From: Marsupella aquatica | Lineage: Eukaryota > Plantae > Marchantiophyta | NCBI GenBank assembly: GCA_973895155.1 | Contig: OZ316891.1 | Location: 11,840,771 to 11,904,770, forward strand | Direction of reading: 5' to 3' | DNA length: 64,000 bases | Shown here: in pieces, positions 1 to 15,853 of the stretch | How positions within the stretch are numbered: the first letter of the stretch is position 1 | How the letters are laid out: each line of letters begins with the position of its first letter | Position numbers and translations under genes: made by a program | The notes under the pieces: model-generated | The model's database searches: none | What the model was told of the DNA's origin: nothing | The model's input: the letters and a program-made list of their open reading frames with translations, nothing else

Positions 1-1749
1 GAAAGTGCAAGCACCAGTGATAGTGACGGCCAGCAAGGGGAAGGGCAAGGGCAAGACAAAAGCTCCGGTTCCAAAACCAATTCAAAAGTTGGCTGATGAC
101 ATGAATCTTACACCTTGGAAAGATATCCAAGGTATCTCCAATGAGACTGTCATCCAAAAACTCTTAGAATGAGTGGTGGCAAAATACATCAGTTTAGAGG
201 AAATGGGGCACGAGGCCGATACGTACAAAAAGCTTAAAAAAATTAAAAATACATTTGTCCAACTAGCGAATCAAGAGAATTGGGCCGCATGTCGAGCTAT
301 GTTTCCCAAAGAAACTGAATCGAAAGAGCTCGAGCGATTTGTTGAGGTCATGGCCGCAGTTGTAAGTATTCCAAACCTCAAATTATTTTGAAGTTAATTA
401 ATTTGATTGTTGTTTAGATTTTAGAGATATTTTATATGATCCAAGTATCAAGTTTATTATTGGACCTCTGGTTTTGTAGTAGTTGAGAGACTTGATTAGC
501 TGATACTGAATTCAAAATATGATACCGAGTATCATCTTTGGTATTGACCTATATGTTTACTGGGAAATTCAGCCTTAGCAATCCCAGACATGATGTGGAG
601 TATCAAATTTGTTATTGGTCATTTGTTTAATCAAGATGTCTTCATTTTGTACTTATAGATCAAACTCTGCTCAAAGAGGAAAAAGGAGCCAAGGATTGGA
701 AATGAGGTTGATGAAGTCGGAGAAGAGGAACTTCCTGCAGATAAGATTCCTCTACGGTTCAGGAATTTTGTGGCCAAAGCAATTGAAGACTACAACAAGA
801 AGCTTGCAGGCGAGGAAGTCGAATCATCCGAATTCACATGGAAGAATGCTGATGGCGATGTGATGTCCTATGCTCTTCATACAGGAGATGCCAGGGTTTG
901 CAAGGCATTTTTGCCACCAAAAAATTATACTTTGGCCATAGCTGACATCCCATACGGTTTCAATGCGGTTGGGTCTGAGAATGACGAGAAGGCATTTGAG
1001 GAGAATGATATCATCGATATGGTGGAGGGATTTGCAAGTGTGACAACAGCTGAGGCTTGGCGCTTTGTTGTAATACATTCTTTGCAGCAGGTTAATAGTG
1101 TTATGAATGCTCTTGGTAAAACCTGCAATGCGGGAATTGAAGCTGGTATTTGGGAGAAGACTAATGTTCATGATCATCCATCAGGTAACAGGTTGGCTTG
1201 GTCTTTGAAAATTGGACAATTGGTTTTCATAGCAAAGATGGAATCAGGACAAGGGAGATGTACAATTTCACAAAAGAAGAGAGTAGAGGAAACATCATTA
1301 AAGTCCCATGCGTAACTGTGAAGTCAGTGACTCTTTTGGGGGAAATAGTAAACCCCTACCAAAAGCCAGTAGCTTTATCACAATATTTTGTGGATCATTT
1401 TAGCTATGAAGGGGATTGGGTTATAGACTTTTGTGCAGGGACAGACTCCACAACCTGTGCAGCCCTCCTCAGTCATCGACATGCTGCAGCAATTGAGTTG
1501 AGCCCTACTCAAGTAGATTTTATTGTAGGGCCAATTTAAACTCTAGACTCTAGGTGGCAATTGACTGAGGAGCATGAAATCCAAGGGACTGGGATTCAAG
1601 CTATGGAGATTCAACCGCCATTTGGTGGACTACAAACTAGCACAGTTATGACTGAGGTTGTCGAGTACGAGGACCATGTAGAGGATGAGGTAGTAGAAGC
1701 ACCTGAGGAAGATCATCCAGCTAATTTTGATGATATGTTGGAAGATTAA
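1..1749 (+). pseudogene. Beta-class N4-cytosine/N6-adenine DNA methyltransferase (N6_N4_Mtase-like), transposon-associated; 5' end outside window; disrupted
   Basis: Motif IV-like 'LAIADIPYG' (~930-955) precedes 'NPYQKPVAL' and motif I-like 'GDWVIDFCAGTDST...AAAIELS' (~1350-1500), i.e. beta-class order. GT-AG intron 362-658 joins the 173 frame in phase to the 770 frame. Lesions: TGA 170-172, frameshift ~1203, TAA 1537-1539; acidic tail to TAA 1749. Confidence 0.85.
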
Positions 1750-2069
1750 CTGATTTTGTATCAAGTTTTGAAAGTTAGACCGGTCAATAAACATTTTGTA
1801 ATTTGTTTTCTTGAAGTAATCAAACAAGTATTTCCCGCTGGTAATCTTGGATATTCTCCCAAGTTCCGTGCACTAAATATGTTGTAAAGAGTAGATTTTT
1901 TAGTCATGAACTTTGGCTAGTAGGGGTGGCTACCTTGTCGCTTGCTTTCTAGTCCCGATCAATATCTAATGTGATACTAGTATCATGTTATGTTTTTCTT
2001 TTTTCTTATCTAGTTTGGCTTAGTTCCTCGATAGTGTATGTAACTAAATATTTGCTCCGTCCATTGCAG

Positions 2070-2840
2070 AATGATATCTCCAATGATCTTCCACCTAGCA
2101 TCAGCAAAATTGAGTTGGATGATTTGCTTGCAAAGAAGGTTTTGAACACGGATTTGGTTCCCAAGGAAATTGATTTGAACGATGATTTGGATCCGAATGA
2201 AATTCTAACCACGATTGACAATTATGAGTTAAATCACAAACATATGAAATGTTTGTTACCTGGAGGATGGCTAACATCGGAGGTTGTAAATCCATATTTA
2301 ATTCTACTAAAGGAAAGGGAAGCCAAGAGGGAAGTGTGCAACACTTTCCCCACTATCAAGTGTCATTTTTTTGATACTTGGTTTTACAAACGTCTTTCAA
2401 ACCCATCTTATGGGTATAGCACAAGTGTTGCAAATTGGACAAAGAGGATAGGCTATAGCATATTTGAATGTGACAAGGTTCTTGTTCCTATTCATAATGA
2501 CTCATCTCGACATTGGTCTTTGGCAATAATCGACCTGAGGGCAAGGAAATTTGAATACTTAGATTCGTTGTGTAATGAGGATACACAGGTACTCATAAAC
2601 TTGGCTAGATATCTTGATGACGAAGCACTCCACAAATCCAAACCACAACTTGATGCAATGACTTGGGAAAGAGTCACTCCCAAAAATATTCCTAAACAAT
2701 TAGATGACTATAATTGTGGGATGTTTCTTCTCAAGTTTGCTAGTTGTCGGAGTTTAAATTTGGCTTTTGACTTCACCTCAAGTGATATGGAGAGGTTTAG
2801 AAGAGAAGTGATTTTACAACTTGTGACAAGAAAAATTTGA
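2070..2840 (+). CDS. Ulp1/SENP family C48 SUMO protease domain (transposon cargo; terminal exon)
   Basis: 'GWLTSEVVNPYL', 'HFFDTWFY', 'VPIH...HWSL' (His), 'YLDSL' (Asp), 'QLDDYNCG' (Gln/Cys): catalytic residues intact. Likely acceptor TTGCAG ending at 2069 in phase 0, with CTAA branch-like site at 2044. Confidence 0.9.
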   Translation, partial: NDISNDLPPSISKIELDDLLAKKVLNTDLVPKEIDLNDDLDPNEILTTIDNYELNHKHMKCLLPGGWLTSEVVNPYLILLKEREAKREVCNTFPTIKCHFFDTWFYKRLSNPSYGYSTSVANWTKRIGYSIFECDKVLVPIHNDSSRHWSLAIIDLRARKFEYLDSLCNEDTQVLINLARYLDDEALHKSKPQLDAMTWERVTPKNIPKQLDDYNCGMFLLKFASCRSLNLAFDFTSSDMERFRREVILQLVTRKI

Positions 2841-2940
2841 TAGTTACACAACAAATTTGATACATAAATCATTAAATTGATGCTATTGTAATTTAGGATT
2901 ACACTCAATAAAATCAAATGCTATGATGATTGTACAATGT

Positions 2941-4363
2941 TTAGCTATTGTCAACATTTTCTTCATTTGCCTCCACTAATTCAAGACTGCACTCCAAAAG
3001 TGCAGCTTGTATTATTTGCCTTGTCTTCACTGCTATTGTGTTGTTGGCTAACAAAGCAAAGTTGTATGCATAGACAACTGTTTCTAATAGGTTCAACTCT
3101 GCATGTAGAAGTTTCTTTGATGATGATGCCTCTTTCTCTGGATAATATTTTCCATCAATTGCAGACTCGGATTCACACTCAGTTGTATACCAAGTGATTT
3201 TGATCGTTTGTGGAACATCATCAACTTTGGTTACTATCTTTGTCACCTTGGCCATCCAAAAAGGCCTTCCACTAGGATCTTGATAAGCAGCAACACAAAT
3301 CATGGAATATTTGTTATTGACCTCCATGTCTTTGAAATCTCCCAACTCCGTTTGCTTTCTTCAAGTACCCGAGTACATGGCTCTCTCTGGTCCAGCTATT
3401 TTCTCTTGCAAAGTATCTTCGATAATCACTAGGGCCTCCGGGGTTGGCATCACTAAGCCACTTGCCGATTTGGGCCAAACCCAATTGAAACTCCATGCAT
3501 GTGGCATCCTCGAGATGGTTACATAAAATATCTTTCTGTTGATCAAAAAATGAATACCACCAAACTTTATCATCATTATCAAAATAATTGAATCCTACTT
3601 CAATTGCTTTTCGATATTTCTCCAGATGAGCAAGTCCTTTGCTAGTTGCATTGCCCTCTTCCTCGATCTCATCACTTATGCCAGAGCATTTGAGCGGCAT
3701 TTGTGATGCAACCCACATTGGGGATGTTGGAATGTAGTTAACAAATTCCACTGCTTCTCCCCAACCAATTGTTGTAGATAGATGTTTTCCATGAAATAAG
3801 ATTTTAACAATCCCATCGCTGCTCACACTCCTTTTCATTTGAAATTGTCTTTGATAGCTGATGAGATTGAGCGGTTGTAAAACTTTTCCTGCAAGCTCCT
3901 TGTCATTTGGCTGATCCTGGTCCTTCACAAATTTCCGAAAATCTGCTGTCTCACTTACAAAAATCACCTCCGGTAGTGGTTTGTATGAGGATTTAATGAT
4001 TTCGGTGAGTGTTTCCAACCTAAATGCCCTTTGCTTGTTCAACTTTGAAGAGAATTTGCTGAACATTTGATCAATTTGATCATGAGTATGCCCTACCAAA
4101 AGAAAACCAAGCTTTATCTTTTGGAAGATATTTAAATCTACCAACATATTTAAATATGCCATCACAAATTGATTTTTGTTCTCCCTAGCTGTGTTATCTA
4201 ACTGTAAATACAATATTGGAGGTAGACTTCCTTGCCATGTATTTAGCATATTTTGGATGACATGAATTGTCAAATTTGCATCATTATGAATATTAGGGTA
4301 ATTCAAGAAAACCTTTGATGAAAGGCGACCACTAAATATCAAACAACCTACAACATGTATAGG
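2941..4363 (-). pseudogene. DUF7869-type (DDE/RNase H-fold, Sola-like) putative transposase, 5'-truncated by the CACTA element, frameshifted
   Basis: 'LYLQLDNTARENKNQ...KLGFLLVGHTHDQIDQMFS' signature. Reading continues via a frameshift (~3520) and an in-frame TGA (3361-3363) into the 2941-3345 ORF. Residues of the listed ORF above 4363 derive from the CACTA terminus. Confidence 0.75.
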
Positions 4364-4379
4364 CACTACAACATATTTT

Positions 4380-4860
4380 GCCCTTTTGCGAAGCTCATTT
4401 GAGTCCGGACACACGTTTGCAATTCCAGATGCTTCAAACCGTTGATGACTCAATACGCATCGCAATTTGCGATACTTGTGGTATCGCAACTTTGGTCTTC
4501 CATGCGATTTGCATCGCAAACATTTTGCGAACTTTATTGTATCACAATAGTTTGCGAAACTACAGAGATTACAAAACACATTACAAAGGCTCCGCGACCG
4601 CTCCGAAAGTCCGAAACCACGGTAACATTAATGATGCGAAACAATTAGGATTGGAGGATGTTTGCGAAAAGGTTAGCTTCAAACAATTTGCGATGGGTTT
4701 GTATGGCAAATGTGCGAAACGATATGGATGGTAAAGGTGGGATGGTCTGGATATCGCAAAATAGTGAAGCGTATAGTATGGAATAATTGAGAAACGGTTT
4801 AAATGGCAGAATTGCAATTTGGTTGGGATTTGTTTAGTTTCGCAAACAGTTCGCAAACGT
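4380..4860. repeat. CACTA left subterminal repeat array (TTGCGAA/TTCGCAA motif, both orientations)
   Basis: Many copies of ttgcgaa/ttgcgat/tcgcaa in both orientations. Confidence 0.85.
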
Positions 4861-4889
4861 TTATGTTAGACTTGTGTGTGCATCTAGGT

Positions 4890-5115
4890 TAGAGTTTGAA
4901 TGGGGGAGGAGGAGGGAGGGAGGTGAAAGGTGAAAGAGGGAGGAAGGGAGTTGGAAGGTGGATGAGGGACGGAGGAAGAAGGGAGTCCAAAGAGGGTTTA
5001 CTAAAAATAGGAGAGACTTTAGCGAAGAGGGAGGGAGGAGAAAAAGCTATGGATTTTTTGGAAGAGGAAGGAGAGTTTGGGTTCAAAGAGGGAGGAGGGA
5101 TAAGGGAGGGAGTAC
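4890..5115 (+). repeat. Purine-rich (GGAGG/GAAGG) low-complexity tract
   Basis: Strongly G/A-biased sequence on the + strand. Confidence 0.7.
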
Positions 5116-5263: not shown

Positions 5264-7045
5264 TCACACTTGGTCACCTTCAATGTCCTCTACATCTGAC
5301 ACAAAAATAGTGTCTGGCTTGTCTGAAACAATGGAACGAGACCGTGGCACATATGTGATGACAAGTGACTACTCTGGGTCTAAGGGGTATGGAACGTATA
5401 AACATTGCTCCAAGTGAGATGGGAAAGTAAATGGCTCTGACGTTTGCCAATGAGATGCTTGAAAACTAGTGGCACTTGTCCTCAACCGTGTAAACCCACT
5501 CTCATCTTGGAGTACAGTGCGATTATTACCAACAAGGTTCACTTTGAACCACTTGCACTTGAAGACATACTCCTCAAACTTAGATTGGTTGTCATATGAG
5601 ACCACCAAAATCTCCTCTATCTTCCCATAGTGTGGCACAACATCACGAACAATGTTCCTGTCATGTCGGCTACTCCGGGAGTCCTGACAAAACTGCCCTT
5701 GAACTCCACAATCAAAAGTATGAGCCCTCTTCTCATCAAGGGAAGAAATCCTGAAATTAACAAGACCCATATATTGTTTACTACTACACAAAAAACACTA
5801 ATCATGTTATGAGGAACCTTTCATACCAAAAGAGAAAAACACACTTATCTTAAGTAAAATGATTACTATATCTTAAGTAGTAGTACATGAATATGGAAAA
5901 CAAGGTTAGGAACTAGTGAAACCTGAAGTGTCTCCCTTGGGTCCACATGGCCGTCTTGGATGTTACCACTCTCAAAGGGCCATGAACAATGGTCCGAATG
6001 TCATTTGTCATAGTAGGAAACTGTGAGACATCTCCTCCTTGTGCCAAAATGCCATCCAACTCAACCAACTTTTCCTTCATAAACTCATGCAACTTAGGAA
6101 AAATCCTTGCCCTTTGACTCATTCTTTTGGCATTGTCATAAAACTCCCTCCATTCATCCATGACATTGCTATTACTCAACATGAATGTATTCAACTGTGT
6201 CCACTCTGTTGATGTAAGCATGCGTGTTTTTGTTGCTCCTGTTAAACGGTCCTCCTCCTCTTGCCTCTCCTCCATCCAAGTACGTGGTAAAGTCCGATCA
6301 ATGGTGGCCAAGATGTTACTACAATAAAACATGCTCTCTGCAGCCAAGTATCCTGTAGCTATGCTTCCCTCCACTCGTGCACGGTTACGTACATAAGCCT
6401 TCAAGACTGACATGTAACGCTCAAGCCAGTACATCCATCGACAATGAACTGGACCAGCAATGGCAACCTCCCTCATAAGATGCACAAGTAAATGAACCTG
6501 ACAATCAAAGAAGGAAGGAGGGAGGGCCTTCTCCAACTTGCAAACCACCTTAGCTGCCAATACCTCCATTCCAGGAATCTCTTCCACATATATCTCCTTT
6601 GAGCATATCCATCTCAACAAACGACCCAATGACCAAATGGCATCTTGCACTTCTTTGATCCCCAACCCTATAATTGCCACTGGCAATATATGCTGCAATA
6701 AGCGGTGATAGTCATGTGTCTTGAGATACCGTGGCCATTTGTGATTGTCCTCCATCCCAAAAGCTTTCCTCAAATTGGCACCATAGCCTGTAGGAAACCG
6801 CATCTCCCCTATACGATTCCGGAATTCACGTCTTTGGCCAACACTAAGCACCCAAGGAGCAGAAGGACGATGTTCCAAACCTGTGGCAGGATCAACTTGT
6901 ACCCATACATCTGGATGCATTTCCAACTCTTCACATGCCTCCCTGAAGTTAGTGTCCTTCTCCCCATAAAAATGAGCTATCAACGCCTTCCCCACATTTC
7001 CCTCTATGTGCATGGGGTCTAAAAGATGGCGGATCTTCAACTCTG
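5264..7045 (-). pseudogene. CACTA TnpD transposase C-terminal part (DUF4218 + DUF4216); Transposase_21 core missing
   Basis: 'IRHLLDPMHIEGNV', 'LKTHDYHRLLQHILP', 'LPPSFFDCQVHLLVHL', 'GPVHCRWMYWLER', 'NRARVEGSI'. Intron ~5752-5921, then 'HYGKIEEI...VFKCKWF...DESGF...EPF...QCLY'. TAG at 5369-5371 where Trp is expected; stop at 5264. Confidence 0.92.
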
Positions 7046-8106
7046 ACCATAAGGGGCTGGTGGAGGACCCTCAATGAAAACCCACTCACAATTTTGCCTA
7101 CGCTTGGGGCGAGTCCCCACAGTACTGTTTATGAAACCAGCTATATTCCCAGTTCGTATGGGGTCCCCATCTATCACCCGCTGCTCACTATACCTCCTAG
7201 TGTTTCCATCAAAAGTATCTAACTCCAAGGCATAAGTCTTCCACTCAGGATGTTGTGCAAGGATCATGTTCCAATGTCTTCTCTTGTAGATGGGTCCACC
7301 ATAAGGAAACAACGTAGGTCCTTCTCGACCGCGTCCACCACTACCACTCTCGGTATCCACAATGATGTCTTCACAAGCAAAAACTCCATAGCCATGTCTA
7401 TCCCCAAGTGTGGAAGGTTTGATAACCCAACGTCTTCCCCAAACCTCTACCTCCTCACCATAGGAAAGCTCTTGTGGCAAACCAAGAGTCTGGGGATCCC
7501 AGTCCTTGATGATAGGAACACATCTGCCAGTAAACTCACAATCACCCCACCTACCGGTAACCACTGCCTTGTACAAATCAGTATCCCCTCGGGGCCGTCT
7601 CTTGGAACGCTTTCTCCCTCTTGGGACAACAGGCTCACCCCCAACTGCCCTAGGACTGGAGGGGGCTGTTGCTAGACCCAAGGCTTGTGAGAATGCATTG
7701 CCTATAGCATCTAGAACACCTTGTGATGGGACATAAGGTGCTGATGCCGCAGGTCTAGGCCTACTAGATACCTATTCCACCCAAACCAAAACAAACAACA
7801 AGAGGTGTGAAATTAAAAACCTTCACCATTGCAATGTGGAAATAGGGTAGAAACTAAGGCGTAAACACTTACCACATGGGATGAGGAAGCCCCTGTTGTA
7901 TGACGTCCGTAACGTCCATATCTCTCAATATGCTGGGTGCATATATAGGACTTTTGGGAAACCTGACCCACGCATTTGGCACATTGGCAAAGCTGACGGG
8001 GTGGACCACGAGGAGGAGGTGCAGTCGTGTGAGGTTGAGGAGGAGGTGGTATATCTTCATCGGAGGAGGAAGAATCTGTGGTGGAGATCTCAGAAGATGA
8101 AGACAT
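7037..8106 (-). CDS. Spliced ORF: transposase-associated Zn motif (CxCxxC..H..G) + SET-domain-like region, C-terminally truncated at junction with TnpD
   Basis: Exon 8106-7873 ('CQCAKC...QHIERYG'), GT-AG intron 7872-7772, in-frame exon 7771-7037 with SET motifs 'IKPSTLGDRHGYGVFACEDI', 'LFPYGG', 'YALEL', 'IDGDPIRTGNIAGFINS', 'NCEW'. Confidence 0.75.
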
Positions 8107-8965: not shown

Positions 8966-9435
8966 CAAACGCCGGGATTTGAAATGGCGGAATTTCTTAA
9001 TTACACAAAAGGGCATAGTATAACTTACATGGCCTAAACAAAAGGAGGAGGGAAAGAATGTGAAAAAAAATTTCGCCAGGAATTGCCACGATATTGAGAA
9101 CCGACCTGCTTCGCAACCTGCTTCAGAATTTGGTCACATTATTTGCGAAGCAAAATGTTTCGCAACAGCTTCGGAAAAACAAAGCCCGAGAGCGTTTTTT
9201 CGCGTGTCTGCAGCTTTGCGAAGGCTTTGCGAAGCGTGTGGTTTCGCATTGGTTTTGGAAAGTTGAGATACTAGTTGCGAAGCGGGCTGATTCGCAAATT
9301 GCGATGCGGACTGCGTCGCAAATGTGTTTTGTCTGGGCATTCGGACCTTCCCGCCGGGTTACAAGGCCCATTCGACGTTTTTTGAAGTGAGGGAGGGCAG
9401 GAGGAGAGCTTGCGCGCGCTTGGTGTTGGATAGCT

Positions 9436-11502
9436 ATGGATTCTAGTGGAGGGCGTGGAGGGGATGGGGCAGGGGCAAGTGGGAGTGGGAGTGGCAATGG
9501 CAATGGAGGGAACAGGAATGAGGAGAGTAATCAATGGACGAATTTGATGGCCGAGCATCTCAATGCCATACAGCTGAGCCATTTGGATTTGAGTACACCA
9601 GCTGGGATTGCTTCTTTGAGTGCAATTCTAGGGCAAGCTTTGCAAACCGGGGTTGCAGCAGGGCAGGCTCAGAGGGAGAAAGAGGCAAAGGCTGCAGCTG
9701 AGGAGAAGGCCAGAGAGAAGAAACGAAAGAAGGAGGAGAGGGCTAAGGCAGGAGTACTCTCTCCTGCAGCCCTCGAAAAGAAGAGGAGAAGGGAGGAACG
9801 AGATGAGATTCGAGCACAACGTGAGGCGCAGCGGAAAAAGGAGGAAGAGAGGAAGAAGCTGCCATTGATTGCCTTGGTTGAGGGCATTCCTACTGAGTTG
9901 GCCTACACTGGGGCAAAGAGCACTATCAGGCTTGCTGTGAGGACTAGCTTTGCATGAGGTGTTGAGTGGGGGAAACTAAGCAGAGCAGAGCAGTGGAAAG
10001 TAATGACTCAGGTCAAAGATTCATTCAGAAATGGAGCAGAGATTGATGACCAGTGGCTTGCAGATAGAATTTTGAATTCAATGTCTCAAGCACGATACCA
10101 TGATAGGAGGAAGGTGAGGGCCTACCTGGCAAGCTTGCAGGAGTACAGGAACGTGAGGAGGCCAGTGCAATTCACAGAGGATGTGTGGAACGCGTTCTAT
10201 AAGGTCGAGGTGCAGCTGAAAGCAACCAAGGACCTCCAATTCTGGAAGGAGAAGGAGGCCAAGGCACTTCAGGCCGGGAAGTCAGACAAAGACCTCAAGG
10301 CATTGGCTGAGAAGGTCTCTCAGCTGCAGCACATCGTGGATGAAGTGGGGACACCACCCCAGAAGTTCATCCTTGCAGCAGACCGAGTCAGCAAACGCCC
10401 CAAGACCACACACAAGATGGGGCAAGGTGGACTTCCCGGCCTGAAAGCAACCTTCGTGAGTCCTCTCCCCTCCTCCCCTGCTTCTTTTCCTTCGCCTTCA
10501 ATTGTTGTTTGCTTGCCTGCAATGCCCCTTGCAGACCTCTGCTTTACCCCTTATGGCCTCCCCTTTCGTTTTAGGTCACCCTGACACATTGCATGCCTTA
10601 GCCATTTCTCGGATTTTTTTAAAAGCACAATTTGCGAAACAATTGTGAAGCGGGTTGCCTCGCAATTGTTTCGCAAACTCTATTATAACCTTTTTCCCGT
10701 AAGGTTTGCGAAGCCATTGCGAGGCAATCCAATTCGCAGTCTATTTCGCAAACTTAAATATATTTGAATTTGCGAAGGTGGGAGTTTCGCAAAGCTTGTT
10801 TCATTTTGAAAAACGTTTAGTGTCGAGTGACAAATGTTTGTTAGGGTAATGGGGTTTTTTTTCTGGTTAGGGTACCCTTTTTACCCTTTTTAGGATTCCT
10901 TTTTTGCTTAAGTACCCTTAGTTACTAACCCGAGCCCCTTATGTTTTGGTGTTTCATTTTTTTGTGGTAGTATAAGAGGTACCGCCGCAAGATAACAACA
11001 AAGGAGATGGAGATTGGGGCAGAGCATGGGGCCAGACATCTCTTTGAGTTGGTTGATGCAGAGTTGGCTAGTGTGAGTGATTTGTAGTACCCTTTCTAAA
11101 CCCGCACCCATTCCATTTATAAGGTTTATACATTTTTCCTATTAACCCTAAACCCGAATTAACCTTGTGACATGGAAGCAGGATAAGGAGGAGCAGGAGG
11201 GGAGTGAGGATAGCAGTGAGGAGGATAGCGGCGCTGATGATGGGGACACTACCGAGGCCACCACGAGTGGGTCTAGAGGGGCAGGGAGTGCTGCCACACC
11301 TAGCACACCAGGAGACCAGGAGGATGATGATGAGGATGATGACGATGATGAGGATGAGCTAGATGGGGAGGAGCAGCAGGCACCACCACCACCGCCACCG
11401 CCACCACCACCACCACCCCCCTCCCGTCCAGCTCGTCCCGCCCAAAGCAAGAAGGACAAGGGGAAGAGGCCAGCAAAGAGGAGTAGGCGGGCTCCATTCT
11501 AG
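9436..11502 (+). pseudogene. CACTA second gene, TnpA/Ptta (Transposase_24)-like DNA-binding protein, multi-exon, one premature stop
   Basis: ORF 9436-9957 continues in frame past TGA (9955) into the 10003 ORF: 'W..L...QW', 'RRPVQFTEDVWNAF', 'THKMGQGG'. Donor GTGAGT ~10456; probable middle exon ~10971-11050; last exon with acidic, poly-Pro and basic NLS-like tail to 11502. Confidence 0.65.
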
Positions 11503-11689
11503 AGGATGCAGATGTAGTTCACTCCGTATGGCATATGGATTAGTCAAAGGACAGTGTCTTGGTATTTGATACCCCATAGGGTTTTAGAAAACCCTAATTT
11601 TTGTACATTCAGGGATTTTGCTTTGGTATCTTCATGTGGAGCAATAAGACCCCAACCCAATTATGAACCCAAATATACAAAACCAAGCC

Positions 11690-12110
11690 CTCAAACTATC
11701 CTTGCGAAACATATGCGAACGCCATACTATCGCAAACTTGCCATACATTGAGTATTGGAATATTGCGATACTTTTGGTTCCGCAATTGTGCGACACCCTC
11801 ACTGATGCAGTTATGCGATACCATATGAATGGCAACGGAATTGTCAAGACAACAGCTTCGCAAATAAGTTATAGTTCAAAGCGCGTCGCAAACCGATAAA
11901 GAGTCTGTCGAGATCGCATAAATGTGATTTATGTGCGATAAAATAAGTTTCGCAGTGTGCGAAGGTGTTGCGAAGGGGTTGTGAAAGTCCGATTGCGAAG
12001 CTGTGGGTTTCAAAGAATGCGAAAGGGTTGCGATGCGTAGCGTTTTGCAAACGCCGGAATTTCATAATTTGGTCCTTTGTTAGTTGCGATGGGACGGGGT
12101 TCGCAAAAGG
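11690..12110. repeat. CACTA right subterminal repeat array (TTGCGAA/TTCGCAA)
   Basis: Same motif as the left end, many copies in both orientations. Confidence 0.85.
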
Positions 12111-12129
12111 GGTCGGTAGTGTTGTAGTG

Positions 12130-15100
12130 CATGCTTCCTCTTCTGCTTTATCAGTAACAAAGAGTCGATTTAAACCAAAAACATCAATTCCTCAATGCTC
12201 TCGATCCAAGATTTTGGATTCAAAAAGTGTGGAGTGTTGGAATTGTGGCAAGACAGGCCACATCAAAAAGAATTGCAAAAAAAACCAAAGATTGCTTTTC
12301 ATCAGGCTAGTTTGGTTGTGTCTGATGATGAAGGATTTACTTTGTGCACCGATTCTTCTATCGTGCATTCAGAACTTGATTGAATTTTGGATTCTGCTTG
12401 TTCTTATCACATGACTTCGACAAGAGCTTTTTTTCATTCCTATGAATCCACTATCGGAAGTGTCTTGATGGGGAATGTTCAACCCTGCCAGATAATTAGC
12501 ATGGGTATAGTAAAAATTCAGATGTCTGTTGGCATTCTTCAAACGTTAACAAATGTCAAACATATTCCTCATCTCAAAAGGAATTTGATTTCTCTTGGAG
12601 CTTTGGACACTATTGGATGTCAGTGGAGTACAGTTGATGGCATTTTGCAAGTGAAGAAGGGATCTCTCAATGTCATGAAAGCCCAAAAGATAGGAAATTT
12701 ATATATCTTGAATGGAGACACCATCCTTGGCAATGTTAATGTGGTTTCATCAGAGGAGGACCAGACACGCTTGTGGCATGCACGACTAGGTCACATGAGT
12801 GAACAAGGATTGGCGGTGCTATGTAAGCAGAAACTCTTGCCCGATGCAAAGTCTTCAAGCTAGAATTTTATCAGCATTGTATTCTTGGCAAGCAGCATCG
12901 TGTAAGTTTTAACATTGCTCATCATATCTCCAAAGATATACTCGATTATATTCATTCTGATGTGTGGGAATCCCCAGTTCTTTCCATTTCATGCATGAAA
13001 TACTATATCTCATTTATTGATGACTATTCACACATGATTTGGATTTATTTCATGTGTGAGAAGTCGGAGGTATTTTCAATCTTCAAGAAGTGGAAAACAT
13101 AAGTTGAGACACAAACGGGAAAGAAGGTGAAGTATCTCCACTCAGACAATGGCGGTGAGTATATTTCCAACGAGTTCAACCTCTATTGTGAGCATGAAGG
13201 CCTTACTTGACATTTGACCAATGTGTATACTCCACAGCAAAATGGTGTTGTAAAACGGCTCAAGAGAACCTTGTTGGAGCGTTTGCAGAGTATGTTAAGT
13301 CAAGTAGGTCTTCCGCAGATCTTCTGGGCTGAAGATGTTAATACGGCAGCTTATTTGCTAACTTTATCTCCAGTTAGCAGCATTTGTTGTAAGACTCCTT
13401 TTGAGATATAGCACCAAAGACCTGTTGATTATACCAAACTACGTGTGTTTGGTTGTGAGGCATGATATGCTCTCTTGCCTCCAATATCACGCACTAAACT
13501 TGATCCAAAGTCTGTGCAGTGCATATTTCTTGGTTATCAGAAAGGAGTGAAATGGTATCGCCTATGGGACCCTTTGGCACAAAAGCTGGTAGTCAGCATC
13601 GATGTTTCATTCAATGAGGTTTTCTCATTGAAAGATGGGGAGAAAATGGTGGAAACTCCAAATGTTGACAGGATTGAGGGAGAGATTGAGCATGAATATG
13701 CTCATTAACTAGTGTTAGCGCCAACACCAATACCAGCAGCATCAGAACCAACTATTGAAGTGCCAGAATCATCAAAGAGATCTTCATCAAGACCTCACAA
13801 GGAGCCTACACGATTTGGAACTTGATTTCCATCTCAGGATCACATGGATATTGATGATGAAGATGCTGACGATTCTGGGAATGTGTTGATCATTGAGGAT
13901 GGAGAACCATCCACTTATTCAGAGGCCATGGCTTCCATTGAGAAGCCAGAATGGATTGCCGCCATGAATAAGGAAATGAAGTCACTCTATGACAACAAGA
14001 CGTGGCAACTAGAAAAACTGCCTCAAAAAAAGCAAGCAGTTGATTGCAAGTGGGTGTATAAGGTGAAAGAAGGAGGTAGTGATCATGAGGAGAAGATTTA
14101 CAAGGCAAGACTGGTTGCCAAGGGTTTTACACAACGCAAAGGTGTGGACTATAGTGATGTCTTCTCTCCAGTGATCAGACAAGCTACCCTTCGCTTACTC
14201 ATGGCACTTGTGGTTATTTTTTATCTCTGCTTGGAATAGATGGATGTTGTCACAGCTTTCCTAGATATGGTTTGCTGGAAGAGGTGATCTTCATGAGACA
14301 GCCTGAAGGGTATATATGTCAAAAGAGGCAAGGAGCATCTGGTGTGCAAGCTGTTAAAATCCTTGTATGGATTGAAACAGAGTCCAAGACAGTGGAACAA
14401 GAGATTCAAAGATTTTATGTTGTCACTTGGATTTATTCAAAGTGTGCATGACTGCTGTCTATACATGAAGAGAGTGAATGATGAAACTTTTGGTTTTATC
14501 TTGCTAGCTCTTTATGTGGATGATATGCTCATAGTAGCAAAGAATAAATCTGACATTACTAAGCTGAAAGCTCATTGAGCTCTGAGTTTAGTATGAAAGA
14601 TTTGGGTGTTGCTAAGTGCATATTGGGCATGGAGATTCATAGGGATAGACAAAATGACAAATTATGGTTGACACAAAGTAAGTACACTAATAAGGTTGTT
14701 GCCAAGTTCAATATGGCAAGTGCCAAGTCTGTGAGTACTCCTTTGGCATCACATTTCAAGCTTTCAGCTGCATCCTGCCCCACAGATGCAATTGAGAGAG
14801 ATCATATATCTAAGGTTCCCTATGATATTGTTGTGGGCAGTTTAATGTATCTTATGGTTTGTACCAGGCCCGATATAGCACATGCTGTTGGATTGGTGAG
14901 CAGGTACATGACTAATCCAGGAAAGATACATTGGGAAGCAGTAAAGTGGATACTACGTTATCTGCAGGGAACCTCTACTGTTGGACTGTTGTTTGATGCA
15001 CACAGTGAAGATGCGGAATCATTGATTGGCTATGTGGACTCTGACTATGGAGGAGATTTGGACCAGAGGAAGTCCACCTCAGGATACACTTTCACTCTTG

Positions 15101-15853
15101 CAGGTGGATGTGTGAGTTGGAGGTCCACAAAGCATAAATGCATATCTCAGTCTTCTACTGAAGCTGAATATGTGGTAGCAGCTGAAGCAGCTAAGGAGGC
15201 GATTTGGTTAAGCAACTTGGTGAAGGATTTGGGGATTACACAACGCATTGTGCTTCTCCATTGTGATAGCAATAGTGCTTTACACATTGCTGCCAACCAA
15301 ATGACACATGGCAAAGTTAAACACATTGATATCTGGTATCACTTCATCAGACAGGCAATGTCAGCAGGAAAGGTTGAGCTAGTCAAGATTGATGGTAAAC
15401 TCAATCCAGTTAACATGTTAACCAAGGTTATCCCTCATGGTGATTTTGCAAAATATGGCAATTCACTGCATATCTTAGCTTCATATTGCTAGCAGCTAGC
15501 TCAAGGCTAGAGTCAAGGGAGAGTTTGTTAGGGTTTCGACTCAACCTTGGCTAGGTTAAATAGAGTTAGTTAACCAGAATTAACATTAGTTGACTAGACT
15601 CTTCATGAAGAGATAACCCTCTTGGTGTCCCATGGAGAGAGAACACTTAGTTGAGAACTTTGTGAGAGAGAGAGAGAGAGAGAGCTTGGACCATGGAGCT
15701 ATGGTGATATGTATTTTTGTGTTCATAGTGAAGCTCTTGGTGCGGCCGTGGACGTAGCCCTGACGGGGTGAACCACGTATCTTTGTGTCAGTGTACCGGA
15801 GTGTTGTATGACTGACGATTATGAGACGTCATGCTGTCCGTTTCGATCCTACA
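12130..15853 (+). mobile_element. Ty1/Copia LTR retrotransposon, lacking 5' LTR and gag N-terminus, decayed
   Basis: Zn knuckle CWNCGKTGHIKKNC, protease 'ILDSACSYHM', GAG-pre-integrase 'LWHARLGHMSE', integrase 'TPQQNGV', RT '[26 protein letters not shown]', RNase H 'SSTEAEY/KHIDIWYHFIR'. Many stops and frameshifts. Confidence 0.96.
15526..15853 (+). repeat. Copia 3' LTR preceded by polypurine tract
   Basis: PPT AAGGGAGAG (15515-15523); starts TGTTAGG, ends CCTACA; contains (GA)n at ~15664-15683 and a 'ccgtggacgtagcc...gaaccacgta' Copia LTR-type motif. Confidence 0.8.

Follow-up and report, generated by a model that had tools for sequence, protein, structure and literature searches.

A stop-terminated SET exon beside TnpD in a bryophyte CACTA transposon family, approached through an internally deleted copy from Marsupella aquatica

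Why does a CACTA transposon of a liverwort carry a SET domain beside its transposase, and do the two belong to one protein? The question is raised by a 64,000-nucleotide stretch of Marsupella aquatica DNA (contig OZ316891.1, positions 11,840,771 to 11,904,770; hereafter the window), where an exon with SET motifs lies between a short Cys/His exon (exon 1) and the remains of the transposase gene TnpD. A preliminary description, made from the letters alone, had proposed that the parental family encodes either a SET-TnpD fusion or an alternatively spliced SET product that may methylate histones at its own loci, and that an internal deletion had shaped this copy. We find in the window a bryophyte CACTA copy with an internal deletion, from a family whose SET exon ends at a stop codon. 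We lean towards the view that this exon supplies an accessory SET protein with which the element would mark its own chromatin.

The SET motifs of the preliminary description are all present in the order given, and their exon follows exon 1 in frame across a phase-0 GT-AG intron, exactly where it had been placed (Table 1). At E ≤ 1, Pfam matched neither SET nor Transpos_assoc in the window's own open reading frames (ORFs), and a PDB sequence search with the window ORF alone returned nothing. A profile built from 48 distant relatives scored the window SET ORF at E 2e-64, with the next-best window ORF at E 2.2, and of the 55 relatives scanned, 35 had PF00856 at E ≤ 0.1, many of them near or under the curated cut-off. 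We also modelled an intact Calypogeia relative, P0001, using AlphaFold2 with 73 relatives (those long enough, from both of the protein searches given below). The model had a mean predicted local distance difference test score (pLDDT) of 79, exceeding 90 over most of the SET core. Foldseek matched it to SET enzymes at E 8e-8 to 1e-5, and VIA aligned it with them at Z 11-12 and a root-mean-square deviation of 2.4-3.0 over 123-134 residues. Because Pfam is silent on the ORF itself, our SET call for the window rests on its relatives, the profile score and the structure; the model puts a SET fold in the parental family, as the preliminary description had expected.

The relatives were gathered by several routes. 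A word-based protein search gave 44, of which the named ones come from Calypogeia and Sphagnum; the nearest named relative is from Calypogeia fissa (75% identity), and a Sphagnum cluster counts 360 members. Searching 1.84 billion representatives with a profile yielded 128 matches at E ≤ 0.001, and among the 30 clusters looked up, all 11 with an organism name were Sphagnum, Calypogeia or Riccia. A metagenome scan added 37 loci, nearly all from one Sphagnum-like subfamily together with the divergent locus L001, so they do not count as independent lineages. Searches whose reach is limited to close relatives confirmed none of 46 candidate stretches in viral contigs and none of 23 in prokaryote genomes as close SET relatives, and giant-virus SETs were no better structural matches than cellular ones. 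A distant member of the SET family, Calypogeia P0106 (503 residues), has a Cys-rich N-terminus of another type, with a weak DUF5763 match, and a tail of 48 residues; it is possibly the cargo of another mobile element.

The element has a conserved layout, running from the CACTA end through a divergent gene, the Cys/His exon and the SET exon to TnpD. The same order is found again in Sphagnum-like contigs and also, as far as gene models tell, in Calypogeia and Riccia. Exon 1 lies upstream of SET in 18 of the 20 loci with at least 300 bp there, and TnpD lies downstream in 20 of the 23 with at least 350 bp there. A CACTA end was reached in four loci; the 10-mer of the upstream end recurs ~3.2 kb upstream of exon 1 in L004, L009, L035 and L037. 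In a tree of 73 rows (short fragments left out, midpoint root, used for depth and grouping only), the window groups with P0001 and Riccia forms two separate deep clades. Gene models in both Riccia clades run on into TnpD sequence; these clades thus also tie SET to TnpD, which makes the linkage old. As the preliminary description had it, then, the SET exon is part of the parental CACTA family.

Selection points the same way. Between the window and 16 loci, the ratio of nonsynonymous to synonymous substitution (dN/dS; Nei-Gojobori, own script) is 0.19-0.27 over 167-169 codons, with a TnpD control of 0.16, which bears out purifying selection. Among the Sphagnum-like copies themselves the ratio rises to 0.80, and internal stops occur in 9 of 16, a pattern that pulls against a functional SET product. 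By these sequences, most sampled copies are decaying, and the two patterns together read as active lineages being kept under selection while inserted copies decay. An isolated origin, in which this single copy captured a functionless fragment of a host SET gene, would suit the truncation of the window SET and its lack of a Pfam SET match. It is refuted by the conserved layout and purifying selection, and we give it almost no credence: there are 44 close and 128 profile-level relatives, the position is conserved, dN/dS is ~0.2, and contigs from other runs carry on into the SET C-terminus at the junction where the window breaks off.

The fusion offered by the preliminary description fares poorly against these loci. 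All 23 complete SET ends in the fetched loci are followed by a stop codon, and 76 of 78 proteins end within 40 residues of motif IV. In the window, the SET and TnpD frames differ at the junction and the SET frame ends two codons past it, so this copy encodes no fusion. In favour of one, seven gene models do pass from the SET exon into TnpD-like sequence. Only Riccia P0090 (773 residues) retains the whole SET core, with Transposase_21 in one chain; a partial SET exon with TnpD-like sequence is found in P0014, P0119 and P0120 (by blastp) and in P0072, P0095 and P0154 (by motif). The joins fall at varied places and, P0090 apart, every model lacks some of SET, as gene-finder artefacts would; a weak search for longer homologs gave none. 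On these loci and models we rejected a SETMAR-type fusion; that such a protein is the main product of intact elements seems to us very improbable.

How, then, would SET and TnpD be expressed from one locus? Exon 1 is very probably spliced to the SET exon: the intron donor and acceptor are kept in all 12 loci printed, and gene models of several Sphagnum species and Calypogeia join the two exons. The predicted product is a Cys/His-SET accessory protein of ~345 residues. The Cys/His motif is common to Sphagnum, Calypogeia and Riccia proteins, and residues 31-60 were modelled at pLDDT 82-89; an Atlas search with exon 1 gave no usable match. Downstream, the 22 Sphagnum-like loci examined have a CATAG acceptor-like site (CATAA in one) ~136-152 bp past the SET stop. 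From this site the TnpD frame runs open in phase 0, and its Met comes seven codons on; the exon 1 donor is also phase 0. The divergent L001 has the same CATAG-AAT 219 bp past its stop. The TnpD exon of L013 matches Transposase_21 (E 3e-39) and DUF4218 (E 1e-31), and neither a Transpos_assoc match nor a Cys/His domain of its own was found in it. Given the matching phases and the lack of this domain in the TnpD exon, skipping of the SET exon would rebuild a canonical TnpD with exon 1 as its N-terminal Cys/His domain. We marginally favour this route to TnpD. The alternatively spliced SET product of the preliminary description is accordingly the option that fits best, with the splicing choice itself our own inference.

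Several observations weigh against one unit with two products. In the Sphagnum-like loci and P0154, TnpD carries a conserved Met of its own with a PRRLR motif after it, as one would expect of a separate gene, and none of the 14 proteins from the exon 1 query joins exon 1 straight to TnpD (gene models, from a weak search). By itself, the 10-mer that L001 shares at the acceptor carries no significance, since 41 of 300 shuffles give a match of that length, and exon 1 matched PF13963 (Transpos_assoc) in one of 16 scanned proteins, at E 0.03, below the cut-off. The first two points speak for tandem genes, one encoding Cys/His-SET and the other, from a start codon of its own, TnpD, with no exon in common and with SET as plain cargo as in HarbingerS and Plavaka; so do Arabidopsis EN/SPM families with head-to-tail split genes (in the available part of PMC13547354). 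Against tandem genes, the spacer of ~136-219 bp is small for a poly(A) site and a promoter, an in-frame AG acceptor precedes the TnpD Met, and the TnpD exon has no N-terminal Cys/His domain of its own. We consider tandem genes rather unlikely and retain the shared unit as the working arrangement. Contigs of seven public runs, of unrecorded kind and so with no bearing on expression, contained no clean skip of the window intron.

Would the SET protein be an enzyme? In the 73-sequence alignment, the residues expected of one are conserved (G209 in 68/71, G211 in 71/72, Y/F237 in 73/73, N295 in 65/72, E343 in 64/66 and Y348 in 62/65). By motif position, we take Y237 to be the lysine-binding and Y348 the catalytic tyrosine. 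On this alignment, the GxG and Asn predicted to bind S-adenosylmethionine (SAM) and both tyrosines are conserved family-wide. The preliminary description had doubted catalysis on account of an NST sequence at motif III. Asn-Ser proves to be the family-wide state (Asn in 65/72 and Ser in 68/71 relatives), with Ser in place of His, and the solved SET enzyme LegAS4 aligns N-F-S there; the holding of SAM is ascribed to backbone atoms and a single Asn side chain (available part of PMC3178901). That ground for doubt is thus weakened, and the doubt persists on another, the missing post-SET, which is the stronger of the two. The chain after the catalytic tyrosine has a median of 4.5 residues (46 of 78 within five), and no post-SET closing the substrate channel was found, which weighs against activity. 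As far as the available part of PMC3178901 goes, no SET methyltransferase is without a post-SET, and the inactivity of PRDM constructs may come from theirs being very short. As there is no post-SET, we describe the family as working like a SET lysine methyltransferase and do not file it as an active one.

These features also support a different reading, in which the SET protein is no histone writer and is instead a pseudo-enzyme, a reader or a decoy (for SAM, histone tails or silencing complexes), or methylates a non-histone target such as the transposase. The near absence of post-SET across the family (compare PMC3178901, available part), the His-to-Ser change in motif III, the small residues at the Tyr/Phe-switch position and the closeness of PRDM domains (Z 10-11) to active enzymes all fit it. 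Against it, the SAM-binding Gly and Asn and both tyrosines are kept at only 21-45% identity, beyond what a scaffold would usually need. We judge a non-writer to be a lesser possibility, and incline slightly to a SET protein that is catalytically active, probably with a partner replacing the post-SET; judged from sequence and model, the Cys/His-SET protein would be a SAM-dependent lysine methyltransferase.

The substrate of such an enzyme cannot be read off the structure, since Set1, PRC2/EZH2, SET7/9, SET8 and bacterial LegAS4 tie at Z 11-12, and this too tells against a confident assignment. Our proposal is that the protein would methylate lysines on the element's own chromatin and so blunt host silencing. 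A histone substrate at or near the element with an anti-silencing effect is a tentative suggestion, on which we would not insist. Bryophyte transposable elements bear H3K27me3 or H3K9 methylation (bioRxiv 2022.10.24.513474, available part), which supplies a motive for anti-silencing and not a proof of it. For targeting, the obvious candidate is binding of the element's TTGCGA arrays by an element-encoded protein. The element holds 39 TTGCGA motifs, all in four clusters, compared with 17 across the other 56 kb of the window; the array between the divergent genes probably marks the promoter region.

A candidate for the array-binding protein is the product of the divergent gene, for which a TnpA-like role might be supposed. 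Its homologs were found in 10 loci, and the reading frame is open in L030 and L036; in the window it is interrupted by a premature TGA (9955-9957). No Pfam family matched it, and its structure model was poor (pLDDT 50). Put at its boldest, the whole would be an old land-plant CACTA lineage with a histone lysine methyltransferase as an alternative last exon, in which the splice choice yields either a transposase or a chromatin writer that shares its zinc-binding N-terminus. The writer, lacking a post-SET, would stay inactive until it met a partner encoded by the element at the TTGCGA arrays, and the family would there write its own anti-silencing mark. We offer this full version as speculation that is improbable in all its parts together.

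The state of the window copy itself is plainer. The abrupt jump near 7045 from SET into the middle of TnpD is real, and the overlap at 7049-7042 is an 8-bp microhomology at a deletion. Compared with L013 (blastn), ~1.85 kb is missing: the last 27 SET codons with the catalytic tyrosine, the spacer and the Transposase_21 exon. The preliminary description was therefore right that an internal deletion took the SET C-terminus and the Transposase_21 core. Contigs from public runs depart from the window at 7042 into the SET C-terminus, or at 7049 into upstream TnpD (continuations translated by hand from the loose ends of contigs), and no listed contig of these runs bridged the junction. Near-identical contigs cover each of the two halves, to a comparable depth, and so hint at a subfamily that is young and multi-copy. 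The window copy is dead, being internally deleted and non-coding. Other deletion derivatives were seen among the loci: L022 (2289-2449) leaps from mid-TnpD almost directly to the terminal repeat, and in L024, L031 and L032 the SET exon is cut and TnpD is not downstream. A ~150-bp TnpD intron at a CAG|G site in Sphagnum-like loci (L013, ~2627-2776) is absent from the window (~6790, minus strand), a gain or loss within the family.

Terminal inverted repeats (TIRs) that begin CACTA, CACTACAACA, lie at 4364 and 12129 and bound 7.8 kb; the downstream end has a 29-bp match (93%) in L022, and the ORF flanking the upstream end encodes zf-CCHC then Pol_BBD (Pfam). No 3-bp target-site duplication surrounds the window copy: the flanks, AGG and CAT, are unmatched and belong to different host elements, AGG to a DUF7869 gene and CAT to a Copia-type gag. 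The window copy is thus a rearranged derivative and not an intact CACTA member. Among the fetched loci, none spans both CACTA ends, and Rfam matched nothing within the element. If one deletion had brought together SET from one copy and TnpD from another, both the flanks and the junction would be explained; a misassembly might also explain them.

Table 1. Features of the SET-bearing CACTA copy, in coordinates of the window.
Feature	Position	Strand	Details
CACTA end, downstream	4364..4373	+	TIR CACTACAACA; flank AGG, within DUF7869 gene
Subterminal TTGCGA array	4374..4900		12 motifs
Last TnpD exon	5264..5749	-	DUF4216 below Pfam cut-off; in-frame stop 5371-5369
TnpD C-terminal part	5913..7049	-	DUF4218 E 4e-34; frame 7070-5913
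SET exon, truncated	7037..7771	-	244 codons (7771-7040), TGA 7039-7037; linker, N-terminal extension, SET motifs I-III
Deletion junction	7042..7049	-	8-bp SET/TnpD overlap; ~1.85 kb missing relative to L013
Intron	7772..7872	-	Phase 0, GT-AG, 101 bp; GTAAGT...AATAG
Coding exon 1	7873..8106	-	ATG start, 78 codons; Ser/acidic start; C-x-C-x2-C-x13-H motif (predicted zinc site; Transpos_assoc-like)
TTGCGA array between divergent genes	9051..9350		9 motifs; same place in related loci
Divergent accessory gene	9436..11502	+	Long helical exon, short exon, acidic/basic tail
Internal TTGCGA array	10591..10800		8 motifs
Subterminal TTGCGA/TCGCAA array	11591..12119		10 motifs
CACTA end, upstream of SET/TnpD unit	12120..12129	-	TIR CACTACAACA; flank CAT, within Copia-type gag

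Left of the element, the plus strand carries at 659-1539 a DNA methylase gene spread over two frames (N6_N4_Mtase, E 3e-9). It is followed by a Ulp1 protease (1953-2840, E 1e-35) and, on the minus strand, by the DUF7869 transposase-like gene (4363-3314, E 2e-48), which is cut by the CACTA end. The stretch 659-4363 is likely another transposon with cargo, its methylase being of the adenine or N4-cytosine type; a PDB search with the N-terminal half of this methylase gave nothing meaningful. To the right, 12130-15492 is a decayed Copia-type retrotransposon with a zinc knuckle, protease-like and GAG-pre-integrase domains (Pfam), and with reverse transcriptase and RNase H-like frames recognised by eye.

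SET cargo on transposons is itself known, and the preliminary description, which had named SETMAR as the known case, overstated its novelty: SET genes have been published for the EnSpm-related Plavaka and for other superfamilies. The part that may be new is a SET-bearing land-plant CACTA, of which we found no report in the literature, including the available parts of PMC11735767 and PMC12885004 (liverwort genomes, by term look-ups) and PMC11982613; Repbase, subscription journals and supplements may hold one. The sections available on the listed transposon SET genes of oomycetes and algae give no substrate or function. Moss and liverwort hosts have mapped silencing marks on transposable elements and possible genetics, so that self-written histone marks become directly testable in them. 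A SET family conserved without a post-SET is a structural puzzle in its own right. There is also a practical consequence: counts of chromatin enzymes are likely inflated by transposon genes, which would account for hundreds of the gene models labelled 'SET domain-containing' in Sphagnum and for more of them in Calypogeia and Riccia.

Comparison with known systems shows which parts of this arrangement are shared. SETMAR (Metnase) resembles it in that a SET domain adjoins a DDE transposase. SETMAR is a single-copy host gene fused in one frame to a mariner transposase, whereas the bryophyte SET sits in a multi-copy mobile element and ends at a stop; the SETMAR SET structure, 3bo5, matched the P0001 model at Z 8.2. 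SET8, SET7/9, Set1, EZH2, LegAS4 and giant-virus SETs share with the family the SET fold, the GxG, the Asn and the two tyrosines, and LegAS4 is likewise without the motif III His. The family differs from compact SET enzymes in its low identity to them (17-28%), in having no pre- or post-SET cysteine cluster and in ending just past the catalytic tyrosine.

Among transposons, En/Spm of maize and Arabidopsis has the same CACTA ends, subterminal repeats and TnpD domains, and its two proteins, TnpD and TnpA, arise either by alternative splicing of one unit or from genes in tandem (PMC13547354, available part). In the bryophyte element the second product would be a SET protein, and the opposite strand holds one more gene; the term 'SET domain' is absent from the main text of PMC13547354 as available. 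VANC of VANDAL elements likely follows the same logic of an element protein altering the silencing of its own family (PMC12730594; bioRxiv 10.1101/2025.02.11.637652; available parts); VANC is not a SET protein, and its anti-silencing effect, only inferred for the bryophyte element, is established for VANDAL. The HarbingerS and MuDR families of Phytophthora (PMC12730594, available part) and Helitrons (bioRxiv 10.1101/2025.02.11.637652, available part) are likewise reported to carry a SET gene apart from the transposase protein; they belong to other superfamilies and hosts, and exon sharing is not described in those parts. Close likeness is also seen in PAG2 of the EnSpm-related Plavaka elements of red algae (same preprint, available part), a SET accessory gene of a DNA transposon placed in EnSpm/CACTA, for which a chromatin role was proposed. 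Likened by description only, PAG2 differs in joining an adenine methylase to SET and in belonging to a separate three-gene cassette, whereas the bryophyte element is a land-plant transposon with CACTA ends and a Transposase_21-DUF4218-DUF4216 protein, and it holds its SET exon between the Cys/His exon and TnpD.

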